IMG/VR virus record: IMGVR_UViG_3300027869_000006
Coordinates: 32,001 to 96,000 of that record
Source of the DNA: a virus
Reading direction: 5' to 3' (one strand)
Length of the DNA: 64,000 nt
The first letter of the stretch is position 1; the number at the start of each line of letters is the position of its first letter. Both the position numbers and the translations under genes were made by a program. The notes below the pieces were generated by a model, which saw only the letters and a list, made by a program, of their open reading frames with translations, was not told the DNA's origin and searched no databases. Positions 1,868-53,732 of the stretch are shown here, in pieces.

Positions 1868-4800
1868 ATGGTAGTTACCACAACAATTGGCTCAACCCCC
1901 GTCTCCTTGCTGAATGGTACGCCGCCAAGTCTGCATGATACGCTTGACCAACGCTCAACAATCCGTCTTGTGGTGATTGACAAAACAGGAACACTCCATT
2001 TTCAACCCATGCAACCCGTGACTATCACCGATAGTTACGCTGGTCGCCTGTTCACGGGCTACGTCAACGATGCGACGGAAACGAATCTCTCCCCGCAAAC
2101 CGCGATCACACATACTGTGACGTGTTTTGACCAACACTGGCTGGCCGATAAGCGCGTGGCATCCGGTGCCTCTGACGACGATGCCATGAGCAACCAGTAC
2201 GCTGGTGATAACGTCGTCTACTTGCTTGCGAACTACCTGGAAGCTGAGGGTGTCACGGCCTCGTATGCACAACGGCGCGAGAGTACGCTCACCGATTTTC
2301 AGGCAGGGACACTGACGAATGTGGTGGCGACCGACAACGTTGGTGATGGGGACCTGGAACTCTCGACGCAGGGGACGCCCGCAAGTACGACCTTTGGCAG
2401 TGGGTTCCGAGACTTTGTGACGGGCGCGACGCTCTCGAGTGTGGATTGCGCGGCAAGTGGGCAGCCCTTCTCGCAACTCAACCTGAAGGCATATAGCGCA
2501 CTCAAGTATAGCGGGACCAATGGCTCATCAAGCGCGGGCAATCTCGGCAATACCTACGCCTATTGGGAAGTGTGCAACGACGGCGCCACCGTGATTGCCT
2601 CGGGCGATACACTGCAATACGACGTGTGGATTTCCTCAACCAGTCCACTCATTCAAGGGGCCGTCGATTTCACCACCACCGATGGTATTGGCCTACGTGA
2701 CTTCCCCAATAACACGCAGGCAATGCATGACCAGAACTTTATCAAAGCGCATCCTGGCACCGATCTCTCCGGCTATGCCAACGATCAGTGGTATCACCGC
2801 ACGATTGATTTGACGCTCATGGCAGGCAAAACTATCTCGCACGTTGATCTCGCCTTTGAGGGCGATACCGGCGGCACGTACCTCGCCTATTTTCGCAACA
2901 TCTTCGTGTACAACAACAGTGGCGGCGTCAAGAAGACGGTCTTCGATAGCTCGCAACACGCCTATTCACCGCAACAACAGAGCATCAGTGGCAACTACCT
3001 GACGACTGATAATGGCTATACCAACCTCTCAGTGATGTTTGTGACGGTCTATGACCAAGTGGGGACCTGGATCAGTCCGGCTCTGAGTATTGATGCCGCC
3101 AAACTGGTGCGGGCAAGCCTGCTCAGTTGGACAACGAGCATGGCGGCGACCACAACTGCCGCGAGTCTTGCCAGTGGCATGGCTTCCCCCAATGTGCCTG
3201 CCGGTACTACGCTCACCTTGTACACGAGCATCGACAATAAGGCGACGTGGCAGGCAGCAACCTTTGAGTCTCCCATTCCAAATCTCTCTGGTGGCTTCAA
3301 CGTGACCAATAGGAGTATGTACGTCAAGGCGGTATTCGCCATCGCCAACCCAAGTCCTGAACTCTCACCGATCCTCACCGCTTTGCAAGCGACCGTTTCG
3401 AGTTCCTGGTCGCAAGTGAAAACCGATAGCATCACGACCGCAGGAGTCCAGGGAGATTTCAACACCGGCAACTATACGAATACCGCCTGGTATAGTGACC
3501 CGGGTGGGGCAAATACGAACCTCTTTCCATCGACTGATGTGGGTGTCACGCTCTCCGGCTATTGGACGGGATGGGATCGGCCTGATGGCACGATTGGCAA
3601 TGTGACGATCTATACGGCCCTTGCCACCACGAATGTCTATACGTGGTATCGGCAACTCAACATCTATGCGATATCCGGCGGGGATATCCGCGTGAAGCTC
3701 AACAATGCACCGAACCTGCAAAACTTTACGGCACAACTGAGTGTGGCTGTGCGTGAAGATGTGAGTCGGGAAAACGGCGTGGGTTTCGTGTATCGCACCA
3801 CGAACTGGGCCAATGCCAACGAGACGTGGGCCTATACGGTGATGCTGGAATTTAACGCGGGGATGGGTTCCACCTTTTCAGCCACGCCCTTTGTGCATGT
3901 GCAACTTGGACGGGCGAATAATGCCGGGACGACCACCGGGACCTATGTCAGTATTGCCGATGTGCTCCTCCCCTTTGTACCCAAAATCAATACCGTCTAT
4001 ACACTCAAAGTCGTCGTGAATGGGAACTCCCATAAGGTCTACGTCGATGACGTGCTGTGGATCAACGCGACCGACAGCACCTGGACAGCCTCCGGCGGAT
4101 TTGGCATTCGCTACTACAACGCCAGTGGGAATGGCTATACCGGCATCTATGACAACTTTGGGGTCGTGCAAAGTCTGTCCGGCCAATGGGATAACGGCTC
4201 AGGTATCGTCCTTGGCTCAGGCATTGGCACGGTCGGCAATTCCCTGGTTGCCTGGGATGCGGATGTACCGTCGGGTGGGACGCTCTCCGCGCTCACCAGC
4301 GTGGATGGTGGGGCTACCTGGCAATCGGCGACCAGTGGCAGCGCCATCCCCAACCTGGCACCAGGGACCAATACGGTGGGGAAATCCGTGCGGATCAAGT
4401 TCCTCCTTGGAGCCAACGCGCCCATTGTGACCCCCATTCTGAAGGGATGGACCATCTGGCTCACCAAACAAACCAACGCAGCAGGGAGCAGAGTCTCCCT
4501 TGGCCTTGACCTCTCAGCCGCCGGGCGTGCCGGGTCCACGCTCGTCAATTGGAATGGGGCAACCCCGCCTGGAACGAACATCTTCATCGATAGTGCGCCT
4601 GATAACACCACCTGGACGAACCTTGGCAGTGGCGCACAAGGCAACGCCCAAATCGCAGGCATACAGAGCCAACTCGACCCGATAGATGATACCTTTGACA
4701 GCAATACGAGTGGCTTCTATGTCTCGACCTTCCAGACCAATGGGACCACCGCCACCTGGGACTTCTCGACGGCGGTGCCTGCCACCTCATATATCAGTGC

Positions 4801-24076: not shown

Positions 24077-24125
24077 TGCTGTTATGAAAGTCAAATACCC
24101 CATGAATAAATTCAGGGGCTTGCAG

Positions 24126-25205
24126 CTAGGCGCGTCCTGCTACAGTAGGCACTTTGACGGGTGCCCGAGAGATATTGATGGCAGCATTGATGTCAGCGTT
24201 CATCGACATGCCGCACTTGACACAACAGAAGGAGACTTGACTCTTGCGGTTCTCTTTCGCACAGTGCCCACAAGCAGAGCACGTTCGAGACGTATTGCGG
24301 GGGTCTACCGTGTGTAACGACACACCAGCAAGAGCAGCCTTATACGAGAGGAATTGACGAAGTTAAGCAAAGGCCCAGGATGTAAAGCGATTGCGCTGAG
24401 AACGTCTAACCGTGCTATCGGTGCGTTTCCGAATGTGCCTGAGTTCTTCAATCGCTATTCCTTGTTTGTTGGCCTTTGCTTTCGCAATGATCCGTTTGGA
24501 GATCACATGATTGGTATTGCGCTTGAACCTGGCTTCTTTGCCAGAGAGCTTCTTGAGATGCCGTTTGGCGGATTTCGTGCCGCGCTTTTGCAAACGTTGA
24601 CGCAAGGCGTGCATACGTGTACGCACCTTCTCAACCTGCTCACCGCTAAAGGTGTCCCCGTCACTGTCGGTCGCCAGGTTGACGATGCCAAGATCGATGC
24701 CAAGCGTCTCAGTCACTTCATCGGGCGTAGGTTCTGGAACATCAAGCGTGACAGCCAGGTAGAAGGTACCATCACGCCAAATCAAATCGGCCTGTCCTTT
24801 GATCTTGTCCATACGGGCTTGCTGATAGCCACCAATGCGGAAGGGCACAAGTACCCGTCCAGTGGTTGTCAAGAGGGAAACGGTAGTGAGTCCTTTGAAG
24901 GACATCACGCGGGGATCATAGACAATGGCACCTCTGGCATCAAACGTTGGCATGATACTCTTGTCGCGCTTGTAGGCTTCGGTCGCTTTGCTAATACAGC
25001 GGATGGCGAGTTGAGCAGGCAGATTGTACCACTTGCGCAAATAGCCATAGACCAGCTTTTGCAGTGCAAACTTATTGGCACTCTTCTCCAGAAAGGCGAT
25101 TTGCGCCACATAGTTTGCCCCTGCATTGAAGCAATCCATCGTCAACAACAAGGCTTTGTATTGTTCTTCAGTTGGGGCAAGCTTCAAGAGCATCGTTTGT
25201 TTCAT
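24126..25205 (-). pseudogene. tnpB: TnpB interrupted by one in-frame stop at 24363-24365
   Basis: RuvC-I LGIDLG and RuvC-II IAIEEL, then WAFA*LRQFLSYKA continuing in frame to the zinc finger (CSACG/CVKCG) and NADINAA. Confidence 0.9.
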
Positions 25206-25211
25206 AGACAT

Positions 25212-25240
25212 ATTGTAGCATCATTGATGAAAGTTGTCAA
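25212..25240 (-). promoter_or_regulatory. sigma70 promoter, probably leaderless tnpB mRNA
   Basis: TTGACA-17nt-TACAAT-6nt-ATG. Confidence 0.7.
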
Positions 25241-48389: not shown

Positions 48390-48986
48390 ATGTACTTCAT
48401 CTATGCACTTGCTGATCCTCGCACTGGCATCATCTGGTATATCGGTATTACGACGGACATGCATCGACGCTTTATGCAGCATGTGGGGTGTCAAGGGAAT
48501 AATCTTGAGAAGAATACATGGATACGAGCATTGAGAAGTGAAACCTTGCTGCCTGCATTGAAGATTCTTGAGAGTGTCCCGACCAATCAACAAGCCAGGG
48601 AACGAGAAGACTATTGGATACAATGGTACCTGGGGGAAGGGATGCCTTTGACAAATATTCTGCAAGAAAAAGGCGAGCAGCAATCTTCCATGAAATCTTC
48701 CCCAAAGACTCCTAAAAAGCCAATCATGAAGTCGGTAGAAGAAGAGGATAGAAAGAAACCGGAACTCAAAGAGACGCAGCGACGGCTTCACTACTGGCGC
48801 ACGAGGCGATTTTTTTCGATGGATGACCTGGCAGAACGTTCGGGAGTAGACAAGGGTACTATCTACAAGATTGAAACGAAGGGTGGTAGACCCAGATATG
48901 AGACGGCTGAGAAACTGGCGAAGGCATTGGGTATCACACTTGACGAATTGTACGGCGACGAGGGTCAGGAAACGAACAGCGCCTAA
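48390..48986 (+). CDS. GIY-YIG-like domain fused to an XRE HTH
   Basis: FIYALADPRTG..WYIGIT...REDYWI...PLTN; C-terminal LAERSGVDKGTIYKIE..KLAKALGITLDEL. Confidence 0.75.
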   Translation: MYFIYALADPRTGIIWYIGITTDMHRRFMQHVGCQGNNLEKNTWIRALRSETLLPALKILESVPTNQQAREREDYWIQWYLGEGMPLTNILQEKGEQQSSMKSSPKTPKKPIMKSVEEEDRKKPELKETQRRLHYWRTRRFFSMDDLAERSGVDKGTIYKIETKGGRPRYETAEKLAKALGITLDELYGDEGQETNSA

Positions 48987-49345: not shown

Positions 49346-49830
49346 GTGTTTCTCTGCTCCCTTGCCACATGGCTTGAATTGTCTCTAGGTGTCCTGTTGT
49401 AATTCGGTAAGTATCCCTTTGAGGAGTTCCAGTGCGAGTTTTCCTGCCTCTTCTTTGCTGAAGGTGAAGCGTGCGACGGCAGTAAACAGATCAAGGCTGG
49501 CATCCTCGACCAACGGGACACACGTCGGGAGTTCCGTGAGATCGATCAGTTTCCCAATCTCGCTCGCTGCCTCTTCAGCGATGAGGATATCCAGGCGTTT
49601 GCCTTGCTTCTTCAGCAGTGTGAGGTGATCGGGATGTAGAGCGATTTCCTGTGCCCAGAAGCCCCAACCCTTCAGAAAGAGACCAGAGAGACGTTGTACC
49701 TGCCGATACATACTGGTTTCGTCTTCTTTGTTGCGAAGGGTGAGGAGCAGCTCGTCTCCCGGCTCAATCGTGTATTTGTGTAAACACATCGCGACGAGTT
49801 GTGTATACGTGAGTTTTTGTCTCATTTACC

Positions 49831-50352
49831 TCAGATGGTTCCTTTCTTGTTGTTGTGTTGTTGAGAGGCAGTTCGTGCCTCCATCGGCGTCGCGTAGACC
49901 GTGAACTTGACCTCGTGCTCCGCGAGCAAGTTGAGGAGTGCCCATCGTTCTTCTTTGTGCCAGGTCGGACCCTGTTCCTGGATGTCCCACAGTGCCCGGA
50001 AGAGTGCAAGCTTTTCCTGGCCCGTTCCCCTGGAAGAGAAGAGTGCCTCCTCGACCAATGGTTGAGTAAAGCGAAGCCAGTCTCGTGGCAGTGGGGAATC
50101 ATACATCTGGATATCCCACAGTGCCCGGAAGATGTCTACCCTGCCGTTCATGGTCAACTTGGAGAAGAACAGTGCCTTTTCCAAGAGTGGTTTCATCCAA
50201 TTGAGCCAATCCGTACGCGTGCAATCACGCACGCGCCGAGGTGTCCCGTCTTCCCCCAAAAAATACCAGCGTAATTGTTCCTGTGGAAATGCAACGGTAA
50301 TCCCTGATTCCTTGAAGTATCCACTCCTCGGTTGCTCAATTTTCGTAATCAT
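49831..50352 (-). CDS. Hypothetical protein with internal repeat
   Basis: DW...PL.E.ALF....FRALWDIQ x2; RBS AAGGGGGAAG. Confidence 0.6.
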   Translation of the reverse strand: MITKIEQPRSGYFKESGITVAFPQEQLRWYFLGEDGTPRRVRDCTRTDWLNWMKPLLEKALFFSKLTMNGRVDIFRALWDIQMYDSPLPRDWLRFTQPLVEEALFSSRGTGQEKLALFRALWDIQEQGPTWHKEERWALLNLLAEHEVKFTVYATPMEARTASQQHNNKKGTI

Positions 50353-50447
50353 CGTATCCTTCCCCCTTGTGATACACTAGCAGTCCCTTTGGCTTGTCAG
50401 GCCGCTTTACTCTTGACATGAACTCCACTATATGGTACAATAGTTCT

Positions 50448-51599
50448 ATGAGAACGTATGAATACCGTCTCTATCCGAATAAAAAGCAGTACCACTTGCT
50501 CATGCAGTGTTTGATGGAGTCTCGCATGCTCTATAACGAGATGTTGAAGACAATCAAGGCACAGTATGAACAGGATGGTACATTTCCAAGTAAATATGAT
50601 TTGGATAAACTGTTTCAAGGATGCAGTGGGGAGCATGTCCCTGCTAGTACGGTACAAATGCTTTCTGACCGACTCTCCAAGTCCCTTAAACGCTTTCTTA
50701 AAGCCCGTGAGTTGGGTATTCCTGATGTAGGCTTTCCGCGATTCAAGAAGCCGAATCGGTGGCATTCCATTCAATTGCGACAATACGGTGATAAACAAAG
50801 ACATCGTAATGTTTGGCTGGATGAAGAGAAGAAACGCTTGTGGGTTCCTAAGAAATTGGGAACCTCTCTGAAAATTAAGTTGCACCGTAAGATCGAGGGG
50901 ACCCCCAAAACTGTCCATCTCGTACTTCGTGCAGATGGGCACTGGTATGCCCTGATCGTCTGTGAAACAGAGCCACAAACAGACCGTCTTCCAAGCACGT
51001 GCGAGCATCCTGCTATTGGTATCGACGTGGGCTTGAAGTCTTTCTTGACTGATAGTGAAGGTCATACCATAGCAAATCCGCGCTATTATCGCAAAAGTCA
51101 ATGCACGCTTCGACGCAAACAACGCACGATGTGCCGACGTAAGAAGGGTTCTCACCGCCGCCGCAAAGCTGCAAAGAGTACGGCACAAACCCATCTGAAG
51201 ATTAAACGACAACGCCGTGACCATCATTTCAAGGTTGCCAAACAGTATGCAGAGTCCTACGGGCATATTGCCGTGGAAGACCTTCAGATTTTCACTATGG
51301 TGCAAAACCATACTCTTGCCAAGAGCATTATGGATGCTGGCTGGGGACAATTCCTTCGTATTCTTGAGGCCAAGGCTGTAAGTGCCGGACATCAAGTCAT
51401 TCGAGTGAACCCCCGCTATACCACACAGGCATGCAGTAATTGTGGGGAACTTGTTCACAAGTCCCTCAGTGTTCGTACGCATATCTGTACCTCCTGTGGC
51501 TATATTGCTGACCGTGATGTCAATGCTGCACAAAACATTTTACAACGGGCCGGGCACGGCCTTCAGGGACGGTCTCCGTTGGGAGTCCGGTTGAACTGA
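50448..51599 (+). CDS. tnpB: TnpB RNA-guided endonuclease (intact)
   Basis: RTYEYRLYP HTH, GFPRFK, AIGIDVG, IAVEDL, CSNCG/CTSCG, DRDVNAA; promoter TTGACA-17-TACAAT-6nt-ATG at 50413-50441. Confidence 0.93.
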   Translation: MRTYEYRLYPNKKQYHLLMQCLMESRMLYNEMLKTIKAQYEQDGTFPSKYDLDKLFQGCSGEHVPASTVQMLSDRLSKSLKRFLKARELGIPDVGFPRFKKPNRWHSIQLRQYGDKQRHRNVWLDEEKKRLWVPKKLGTSLKIKLHRKIEGTPKTVHLVLRADGHWYALIVCETEPQTDRLPSTCEHPAIGIDVGLKSFLTDSEGHTIANPRYYRKSQCTLRRKQRTMCRRKKGSHRRRKAAKSTAQTHLKIKRQRRDHHFKVAKQYAESYGHIAVEDLQIFTMVQNHTLAKSIMDAGWGQFLRILEAKAVSAGHQVIRVNPRYTTQACSNCGELVHKSLSVRTHICTSCGYIADRDVNAAQNILQRAGHGLQGRSPLGVRLN

Positions 51600-51642
51600 G
51601 AAGCCCGTAAGGGAGTTGCCACCAGCGTAACCGCTCCTGTGG
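51480..51642 (+). ncRNA. Putative TnpB omegaRNA/reRNA with 3' guide
   Basis: Typical 3' motif GGGCACGGCCTTC...GAACTGAGAAGCCC...GGGAGTTGCCAC, then flank-derived guide from ~51623; 5' boundary approximate. Confidence 0.55.
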
Positions 51643-51717
51643 GAAGGCGACCGTGCTCCCGCCGTCCTTGAAATAGCCTGTTCGTGGTTGTTCGATGTCT
51701 CGTGATTCTGCTGCCAT
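51623..51717 (-). pseudogene. Orphan N-terminus of the 49831..50352 gene, cut off by the tnpB cassette
   Basis: IEQPRTGYFKDGGSTVAFPQERLRW vs IEQPRSGYFKESGITVAFPQEQLRW; same AAGGGGGAAG RBS. Confidence 0.75.
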
Positions 51718-52260
51718 TGCTCTTCCCCCTTTTGGCAATGCTGACTGACAGAAGTTAGTGGTCCATGTGCTCCTCTACGGGTCCTCCGATTTCTGTAGCA
51801 AACACCACCCGCCGCTTTTCCGTTTGTTCCGGGTCAATCTCCTCCTCATAGACCTCCCAGGCGTCTAATTCCACGACCTCGACCTCCCCAGTATCACAGA
51901 GAAGAGAGAGAGATGCTGGTGTTGGGATAGGTACCACCACGGTCTCGGTCTCTGCCAGGTCGCCGCGCTGCTGGTGTTCCTGCCAATCGGTGATAGGATT
52001 GTCGGTCGTTGGCCCACCGGGGCGAAACCAGAGACGCTCGGCCATGCGCAGCGGGTCACTCGGCGCAAGCTCCTGTCTGCGTGGATAGAGGAACATCTCC
52101 CGGTGGATCGCTCGGTAGTAGTCGCCCGGGTTCTTGACGTAGTCCGGGAGTCCAAGTGTCTCTTGTATGGCACGCCAATGTGCGCGGCCTGATGCACTCT
52201 TCCAGTAGAGCGCACGGGTCTCTTCCGGCAACATGGCCGGATCAAGTGCATATCGTTGCA

Positions 52261-52764
52261 TTACCTGTTGCCCGCAAGCGCGGGTTTCCCCTTTCTTCGT
52301 GAGTGTGGGCGAGCTACATCTGGGGGGAGAGGACGTAGCTCTAGGATGTAGAGAGTGATTTCAATGCGCGGATTGGCCTTGTCGATACGACGGTCAACAT
52401 GCGCAGTTTCAAATTTATTATCATTGAATCCAAGAACCGTTGCGATCAAGTCAAGGGTCGCCTTCAGCCGATTGAGCACATCGCTTCTTCTTGAAGGCAC
52501 ATACACCCAGGCATCACATCCAAGCACGGAGGCCCGCGCCCAATCAGGATGGTATATCCCTTGACTGAGGAGAATGTAGCCAGCATCGTGTTGCCAATCG
52601 CGGAGCTTTCGGCTGCTAATGAAGCGGGTCCCCAGTGAGCCATCCTTTTTCCTGAAGGAGATAGGAGTGTACATCTCATTCTCGGAAGGCGGCAATGGGA
52701 GCTCGAAGGTTGCCTCCTTCAAACGAAATCGTGTGAGAGGTGCGTTTGGAAGAATGAGCTTCAT
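52261..52764 (-). CDS. rusA: RusA-like Holliday junction resolvase
   Basis: LPLPPSENEMY...RRSDVLNRLKATLD.....GFNDNK...PRIEITL; start approximate. Confidence 0.75.
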   Translation of the reverse strand: MKLILPNAPLTRFRLKEATFELPLPPSENEMYTPISFRKKDGSLGTRFISSRKLRDWQHDAGYILLSQGIYHPDWARASVLGCDAWVYVPSRRSDVLNRLKATLDLIATVLGFNDNKFETAHVDRRIDKANPRIEITLYILELRPLPPDVARPHSRRKGKPALAGNR

Positions 52765-53732
52765 TGGTTGAACTATGATGCGTACTCCCTTCTTTCCCTC
52801 GCCCGTCTCCGTTGTCGTGCCCGTACTCGCATGATGATCCAGGTGATCCACAGGAGGATCAGGATGATCCAACTTGACGCATACACGTACAGATAGCCAA
52901 CATCGTCGTGCCATTTCATCGGACCGTCTCCTCCTCTCCCCTATCCATTGTTCCAGTATAGGCAGCCTGATAAATCTTGTGAGCAGCCGAGAGCGAAGGG
53001 GGCACAGAGAGGCCAAGATCATGGGAAAACAGCAGGCGATACTCGTCATACCACGCGAGAAAGTCCTCCGCTTCTTGCAGCTCTTCACTCACCGCTTGCC
53101 GCTCGCTTGCTTGCTGTGATGAAGCAGCAGAGGAGATAGGTATGCGCTTGCATGTGCTTTTGACAAGGGGAACGAGCCAATCGAACAGGAGCAGGAAGAC
53201 AATACCCAGACCCAGGAGGAAGCCAAACATGAAGAGTATGAGAAGTCCACAGAGCGTCAGGAGCAGGCGCTTTGTCCTGTGAAGAGAAGATGAAACGCGG
53301 CGCGACCGACGTTCAAACGGTGTTCCATGGAAAACGTTCCACATTACCCCTCCCCCTCCCCTCATCGCTTTCTCGCTCACACCTCCTGCTCTGATGGCAT
53401 ACCCGTCGCGTTCTCGTGTAAATACGAACTCAACCATACCAGAAGAGCAACAGTGGAGTTACCCAAATTATAGAGAATACATCGTAAAATTACAAGCCTT
53501 TTTTCTGACAATTCTTTCATAATTTATACGGTGGAGTTCATATTGCTACTTCTCTCATATCACGTGCGTATTTACAGTAGAGTTCGTCTTGTACAACATG
53601 GACTCACTTCAATTACGAAAGCAATAGAGCAGAGATGGCATGACGGGCCAGGCATCAGCAAAAAGGTACAAAGGTTACTTATGTCACAAAAGGGTATGTT
53701 ACACTGAAAAGAGAACAAAAGAAGTGTAACAT

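Follow-up and report, generated by a model that had tools for sequence, protein, structure and literature searches.

We analysed a 64,000-nucleotide window, bases 32001-96000 of the 109,768-bp IMG/VR phage record IMGVR_UViG_3300027869_000006 (rated 85% complete), in which a tnpB locus lies among successive minus-strand genes. The phage, of ~110 kb, comes from soil and is uncultured. The tnpB gene is antisense to, and sits between, a complete 173-aa gene and a fragment holding 32 codons from the start of that gene. With somewhat better than even confidence, we read this arrangement as the product of an insertion that split the gene, with a complete gene later regained through recombination with a diverged allele, leaving a nuclease that would be aimed at the displaced allele. 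A bolder interpretation, to which we give limited credence, is that the locus is a natural RNA-guided 'home-and-rescue' phage gene drive, which would cut the cassette-free allele, whether in relatives that co-infect the cell or in deletion derivatives of its own phage, and be copied in by repair together with a resistant gene start. Whether the locus drives or merely persists depends on how much deviation is tolerated in its recognition motif.

A preliminary description of this DNA had already placed an intact tnpB antisense between two copies of one N-terminus, with the right copy cut off exactly at the end of the guide RNA (omegaRNA), the left copy in frame with the rest of the gene, the same ribosome-binding site in front of both, a guide that matches the left copy at 17 of 20 positions, no tnpA, no left-end hairpin and a collapsed hairpin at the right end. 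All of these features are present, and the evidence for each is laid out below.

The central gene (50448-51599, plus strand) is an intact tnpB of 383 aa, with the Pfam domains HTH_OrfB_IS605 (PF12323), OrfB_IS605 (PF01385) and Cas12f1-like TNB (PF07282). Its product aligns with ISDra2 TnpB (8BF8/8EXA) at E = 1.9e-47, with D191, E278 and D361 falling on the catalytic D, E and D, and both CxxC pairs of the zinc finger are present. The family comprises ~7,600 matching proteins. The closest are 77-78% identical and, where named, are annotated as Ktedonobacteraceae/Chloroflexota; Chloroflexota genomes hold hundreds of ~75%-identical copies. The element is a tnpB-only (IS1341-type) member of the IS200/IS605 superfamily, from a lineage that is abundant in Ktedonobacteria.

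We also noted a 378-aa open frame that runs antisense through tnpB in the codon-aligned frame (50397-51533, minus strand), co-directional with the phage operon and ending 45 nt before the start of the resident gene. Stops in this frame number 0-4 in 20 of 21 relatives, versus 8-24 in the other two antisense frames, and its openness may reflect either codon bias or an overlapping gene. A translated reverse-strand open reading frame (ORF) in a cyanophage tnpB has been described in a preprint (10.64898/2026.02.14.705889).

The limits of the element were placed by comparison with chromosomal relatives of tnpB, for which 27 loci were fetched and both ends aligned; 21 were usable for the right end. 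All 21 close in GTTGTCAC or GTTGCCAC and diverge completely beyond, and their alignment fixes the boundary between right end and guide at exactly 51622/51623, the point at which the displaced gene fragment stops. The right end of the relatives consists of CTGAGAAG, a 21-nt hairpin and GAGTTGTCAC. In the window, CTGAGAAG is followed by CCC-GTAA-GGG, by the terminus GAGTTGCCAC, which aligns with GAGTTGTCAC of the 21 relatives, and then by the gene fragment. The shortened hairpin (51604-51613, plus strand), predicted to fold as a mini-hairpin of 3 bp plus GTAA, is 10 nt long only in the window, compared with 21 nt and compensatory changes in 21 of 21 relatives. The subterminal right-end DNA hairpin that is bound by TnpA in IS200/IS605 elements survives here only as this 10-nt remnant.

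The guide-RNA scaffold itself was examined with a covariance model built from the last 120 nt of the 21 relatives. The window matches this model over its full length (positions 1-120) with 80.4 bits and E = 1.6e-21, close to the 77.6-99 bits scored by other phage-borne copies outside the model, and the stems carry compensatory changes across the family. The scaffold (51516-51622, plus strand) overlaps the 3′ end of tnpB and ends at the conserved GAGTTGCCAC. For ISDra2, a guide RNA in which one stem was swapped for a GAAA linker preserved activity (reviewed in PMC13639567), and by analogy the GTAA-capped stub in the window would be at least compatible with function.

At the left end, the relatives share a fixed order of YTAC, ~17-20 nt, a hairpin, a TTGACA/TAnAAT promoter and the ATG. 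A family profile of this region (nhmmer) matches the window from ~50402 only, over positions 74-133 of 134. Positions 1-73, which hold the tip and the hairpin, are absent, and the window has no hairpin-bearing left end directly preceded by the family motif. What remains (50402-50447, plus strand) contains the tnpB promoter, in which TTGACA and TACAAT are separated by a 17-nt spacer (50413-50441, plus strand); it agrees with the consensus at 11 of 12 positions, has a TG before the -10 box and is conserved in relatives. Further left, 50369-50401 separates phage-type from element-type DNA: the left-end profile stops short of this interval, and no significant similarity was found to the DNA upstream of the right fragment. 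The only physical junction that can be placed, a putative recombination junction, lies here. The preliminary description had drawn a discrete cassette bounded at 50267; this position does not mark an end: the resident gene is full-length and its similarity to the truncated fragment simply runs out there, and DNA derived from the element begins at ~50402.

A search for the Y1 transposase (PF01797) found none in the 109.8-kb phage record (85% complete). Because the left tip and hairpin are lost and the right hairpin is shortened, the element appears structurally immobilised and is probably no longer movable by a TnpA transposase. Both deletions seem to have hit parts that only the transposase needs; promoter, reading frame, catalytic residues and scaffold are all intact.

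The gene into which the element is set (49831-50352, minus strand) is an open frame of 173 aa, and its codons 1-29 (50266-50352) form the left copy of the gene start. It belongs to no Pfam or PHROG family. Relatives were found neither in viral contigs nor among 5.8 billion proteins nor in an exhaustive HMMER search over 1.8 billion representatives; the real matches were the protein itself and the truncated ORF of the window (P0124), and the remaining weak matches were repeat proteins. Using the 168-aa neighbour as a further query against viral contigs gained no relative of the host gene. The displaced 5′ fragment (51622-51717, minus strand) has its start codon at 51717 and runs for 32 codons to a Trp codon at 51622-51624. 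Translation would continue for 33 out-of-frame codons into the element, yielding the 65-aa P0124, which ends at 51520. The ribosome-binding site AAGGGGGAAG precedes both starts on the minus strand, at 50359-50368 for the resident gene and at 51722-51731 for the fragment, the latter separated by 23 nt from the preceding stop codon, that of the 168-aa gene (51755-52261). A minus-strand promoter scan for the resident gene returned only a 9/12 match at 50454-50427, no better than shuffled sequence, and we assume that the gene is transcribed by read-through from the operon.

Over the 25 codons that they share, the two gene starts are identical at 20 of 25 residues (80%) and 53 of 75 nt (71%), and they find each other in a local tblastx comparison with E = 1.4e-12. 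Sixteen of the 22 nucleotide differences fall at third codon positions; 11 codons differ synonymously only and 5 change the residue. Because of this third-position and synonymous bias, both starts are likely to have diverged mostly as parts of working genes. Homology is limited to the coding part and the ribosome-binding site, and further upstream the two regions are no more alike than shuffled sequence (29% of shuffles score equally). The left copy had been proposed to be a recoded replacement N-terminus. The distribution of differences speaks against this, in that they are spread across the whole shared stretch with their third-position bias and the 20-nt target is its least diverged part (3/20 differences versus 20/55 elsewhere). 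As judged from these patterns, the two starts are probably old, separately selected alleles or paralogues that were brought together, and represent neither a fresh duplication nor guide-directed recoding. A change in composition at codons 29/30 was also considered as a sign of a boundary and rejected. GC content at third codon positions (GC3) is 0.45 in codons 1-29 and 0.66 in the rest of the gene, but values as low occur across the phage in 18% of 29-codon windows and in 26% of gene starts.

The most economical path to this layout would be insertion followed by recombination, the latter restoring a whole gene and deleting the left end of the element. An element would have inserted beside a TAC core within the small phage gene, splitting it after codon 32. 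An allele of this gene that had diverged long before would then have recombined with the locus, putting a complete copy on the left and, in doing so, removing the left tip and left hairpin of the element, and a second small deletion would have shortened the right-end hairpin. The allele might have come from a co-infecting relative or, less likely, from a tandem paralogue. In the latter case, the element would have hit an upstream paralogue, and an adjacent deletion would have removed the remainder of that paralogue along with the left end of the element. Such an origin makes co-infection unnecessary and trivially explains why homology starts at the end of the fragment, and the synonymous-biased divergence suits old paralogues as well as old alleles. 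We nonetheless regard it as improbable: the phage record holds no other paralogue of the gene, and the motif problem described below applies to it as it does to the other readings. The data at hand do not separate it from recombination with a relative.

TnpB guides are taken from the right flank, as established for ISDra2 (PMC8612924). In the window, the first 20 nt past the right end (51623-51642, plus strand) correspond to codons ~26-32 of the displaced allele, read antisense. The resident gene contains a near-target (50267-50286, plus strand) that agrees with this guide everywhere except at guide positions 9, 10 and 12 (17 of 20 matching), and no other near match to the guide 20-mer occurs in the 109.8-kb phage record. 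Cleavage by ISDra2 TnpB is abolished by double mismatches within guide positions 1-12 (PMC13639567). By the same rule, the resident allele would be shielded by its three mismatches in these critical first 12 positions.

We infer that the TnpB-guide RNA complex is still made, with its guide fixed on the displaced allele. Its only perfect target would be a cassette-free genome in which a start of the displaced type leads directly into the remainder of the gene. This could be the genome of a related phage, or it could arise from this phage through loss of 50267-51622 by recombination between the two starts; read from the sequence, deletion of these 1356 nt, a multiple of 3, would restore an in-frame gene carrying the perfect target. 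The locus could then act as a transposase-independent element that cuts the empty allele and keeps a rescue copy, provided that A or G is tolerated at position -4 of the motif. Homing of this kind is plausible but unproven for the present locus; transposase-independent 'non-restorative homing' between co-infecting phages or plasmids has been discussed (PMC13565253).

The motif is where this scheme is most exposed. A transposon-adjacent motif (TAM)-like ATAC (50263-50266, plus strand) immediately precedes the resident near-target on its 5′ side and lies 181 nt before the tnpB start codon; it has the TAC core, with A at -4. The family motif was derived from 23 copies, among them one complete element at another site in this phage and two from other phages, and from covariation with the left-end DNA guide and an IS608-like spacing. 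Several observations weigh against cleavage of uninterrupted alleles. YTAC is found in 22 of the 23 family copies, as opposed to ATAC at the site. In alignments of the left ends of loci L002-L026, the base at -4 changes together with the left-end DNA guide, the bases just 5′ of the left hairpin (GAG-G/T alongside CTAC, AAAG alongside TTAC), and because of this covariation position -4 is likely to be read at least by the transposase. Pairing of this kind between motif and left-end guide at -4 is that of IS608. The reading frame imposes a further constraint. The final C of the motif falls within a Trp codon, and its first three bases, read on the other strand, form the Tyr codon that follows, so that YTAC at this place would produce a stop, TAA or TAG. 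A functional uninterrupted allele could therefore not carry the consensus, the best possible motif being RTAC, and this restriction lowers the odds that TnpB cuts uninterrupted alleles. In addition, Meers et al. argue for strict motif dependence of TnpB and more tolerance of guide mismatches (PMC10055086). Apart from the motif, it also counts against the scheme that hairpins are prone to deletion, so the clean truncation at the right end need not reflect selection.

Other considerations leave room for activity. A TAC core exactly at the junction, in the matching place of the resident copy, has a chance probability of 1/64, which suggests that motif-directed insertion with a mismatch at -4 took place once. 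ISDra2 TnpB needs the motif on double-stranded DNA and cuts matching single-stranded DNA without it (PMC8612924). We consider it doubtful, though far from implausible, that this TnpB accepts a motif with A or G at -4. The window TnpB is mixed at the residues that separate the CTAC and TTAC subgroups, being CTAC-type at one position and TTAC-type at another. Across the family, the state of -4 is also correlated with the identity of two TnpB residues, around positions 47 and 67, and this two-state CTAC/TTAC switch could help to map how the motif is read. In an attempted empty-site comparison at one family locus (L004), a homologue of the left flank in another genome stopped 92 nt short, with the right flank missing.

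The existence of a target is the second matter on which activity depends. The preliminary description had proposed looking for relatives with the uninterrupted gene and checking them for a 51623-type sequence, and none turned up: no uninterrupted allele, host-gene relative or sister cassette was found in any collection searched, which counts against an active drive even if absence from databases is weak evidence. A degenerate probe for a peptide conserved in both copies of the gene start had no match in viral or metagenome contigs, and neither did an exact probe for the shortened-hairpin right end. In sequencing runs, the DNA was found in one soil run only, probably the source sample, kept as contigs, one of which spans the whole locus. 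Further short pieces of that run were less than 90% identical; five came from other tnpB copies and one (49883-49921) lies inside the host gene. The contigs of that run also weigh against the scheme, as they show no cassette-free variant and no joint that skips the cassette, with the limit that contigs cannot reveal rare variants.

Taken together with the off-consensus motif, these negative results fit an inert scar, that is, a dead-end insertion remnant with no cleavable target, whose intact frame would reflect a short time and which would decay in its turn as another tnpB of the same phage, already carrying an in-frame stop, has begun to do. The strict motif dependence reported for TnpB (PMC8612924, PMC10055086) points the same way. 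Less easily accommodated is the survival of a 383-aa frame, an 11/12 promoter and a whole scaffold through two deletions limited to parts needed for transposition. The TAC core at the junction also points to at least one event in which a mismatch at -4 was tolerated, and cleavage of matching single-stranded DNA needs no motif. On balance we think a pure scar somewhat unlikely.

On these results, the suggestion that the locus is a domesticated homing nuclease is supported in part. The immobilised element, the intact TnpB parts, a guide that equals the displaced allele and a mismatched resident allele all agree with it; the ATAC motif, which departs from the consensus, and the failure to find an uninterrupted allele do not.

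To place the layout in context, we compared it with other tnpB loci. Duplication of the flank, in which the right flank is copied upstream, occurs in 0 of 20 chromosomal relatives, in 1 of 19 phage-borne relatives and in neither of the 2 other tnpB genes of this phage, giving a small-sample tally of 2/22 phage loci versus 0/20 chromosomal ones. The single phage-borne case (L039; IMGVR_UViG_3300032431_000001, a complete 188-kb phage with four tnpB copies) encodes a 38%-identical TnpB between direct repeats of ~250 nt (87% identity; 2184-2432 and 3731-3957). The repeat is non-coding right-flank DNA that includes a terminator hairpin. Its downstream copy begins exactly past the element end GAGTGTCAAC, and its upstream copy is preceded by the motif-like TTTAAC and has its first 29 nt identical to the guide position. 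The topology appears to be the same as that of the window locus, but recent and not 'immunised'. Such a layout may thus recur in other phages. Another phage locus (L030; IMGVR_UViG_3300025910_000137, 2300-3660) has a 60%-identical tnpB directly after a same-strand ORF, with no left-end hairpin or family promoter and with a short 5-bp hairpin at the right end; it may be another immobilised copy.

Two further IS1341-type elements, both with their two ends present, show that the phage has been colonised by such elements. The second tnpB of the phage lies before the window start (genome 6268-7389, plus strand) and is intact, encoding a protein of 376 aa that is 38% identical. It is part of a complete IS1341-type element (flanks at genome 6120-6270 and 7360-7410) with TTTAC in front of its left end, both hairpins, a TTGACA/TAAAAT promoter and the right end GAGTAGTCAC. 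The third tnpB-like gene, at 24126-25220 of the window (minus strand), is 27% identical and is divided by an in-frame stop into parts of 285 aa and 78 aa. Both of its end hairpins are present, and its scaffold (24090-24194) is a weak match to the family model, at 34 bits.

A stronger version of the homing scheme holds that 50267-51622 is an evolved home-and-rescue cassette, with the gene start as cargo, that spreads by cutting and repair among related phages. The layout is as such a cassette needs it to be: the guide is identical to the displaced allele, mismatches in the critical region set the resident allele apart, the gene is whole and the length is divisible by 3. Both deletions are confined to transposase-specific parts, L039 provides a second phage locus of the same topology, and non-restorative homing has precedent in the literature (PMC13565253). 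The scheme is weakened by a left boundary that lacks independent support, the GC3 of 0.45 being no lower than that of 18% of windows and 26% of gene starts, and by a target that is the least diverged part of the shared stretch, so that there is no sign of guide-aimed recoding. The motif is off-consensus and is forced to be so by the reading frame, and the locus is a singleton, with no second genome found to carry either the cassette or the empty allele. We therefore judge an evolved cassette unlikely.

The genes around the locus complete the picture. A 146-aa orphan (49385-49825), a 168-aa orphan (51755-52261) and a RusA-like resolvase (52261-53088) are its neighbours in the minus-strand run. 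About 1.4 kb to the left of the tnpB locus and antisense to its own neighbours, a 198-aa ORF (48390-48986, plus strand) encodes a GIY-YIG nuclease domain fused to a Cro/C1-type helix-turn-helix (HTH); it may be another selfish or regulatory nuclease within the same operon.

TnpB retains a transposon at its site by cleaving the donor DNA that excision leaves empty. Transposase-free spread between co-infecting phages has so far only been proposed. If the locus does spread in this way, then by holding a rescue copy of the gene that it splits it would escape the cost in fitness for which insertions of this kind are normally purged, and would be a natural counterpart of engineered home-and-rescue drives. 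It also indicates which IS605-type parts can go when only the nuclease and guide RNA matter, namely the left tip and hairpin and the distal right hairpin, and losses of this sort bear on how TnpB modules become fixed genes. Should it prove to be only a scar, it would still be a clear case of phage mosaicism repairing a transposon hit.

Among known systems, the closest are the IS1341-type elements and ISDra2 (Karvelis 2021, PMC8612924; Meers 2023, PMC10055086), with which the window locus shares the TnpB domains, the D-E-D triad, a scaffold that overlaps the 3′ end of the gene, a conserved right terminus followed by the guide, and the family promoter. It differs from them in that it has no left tip or hairpin, a right hairpin of 10 nt, ATAC in place of YTAC, and a diverged second gene start where the left end should be. 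Phage homing endonucleases that engage in intronless homing, such as T4 SegF, SegG and MobE (PMC13565253), are likewise encoded by nuclease genes wedged into a phage operon, their own allele being a few substitutions away from the presumed target, and spread or exclusion during co-infection is expected of them. In the window, however, recognition would be by a guide RNA and the target would be the element's own displaced flank; the duplicated gene start falls outside the classical case. IStrons, in which an IS605/IS607 TnpB is combined with a group I intron (PMC10690162), also place a TnpB element inside a gene together with a device that keeps the gene functional. Here, unlike in IStrons, the rescue takes the form of a spare gene start at the DNA level and not of splicing, and tnpB is antisense to the host gene; an Rfam search of 50200-51800 gave no match at E ≤ 1, group I introns included.

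TldR proteins are reportedly (Wiegand et al. 2024) nuclease-dead TnpB-like repressors that occur in prophages, paired with a replacement flagellin gene. The resemblance is that in both cases a TnpB relative has been immobilised, its guide is directed at one version of a gene, and the genome in which it resides has a diverged version. Unlike TldR, the TnpB of the window keeps its D, E and D, its guide is the native flank and has not been retargeted, and its target would be a rival allele and not a host promoter. Synthetic 'home-and-rescue' or 'cleave-and-rescue' gene drives combine a nuclease directed against the wild-type allele with a cleavage-resistant rescue copy inside the drive. The window locus follows the same logic, but it is natural and phage-borne, it is probably an accident of recombination, and its drive function is putative.

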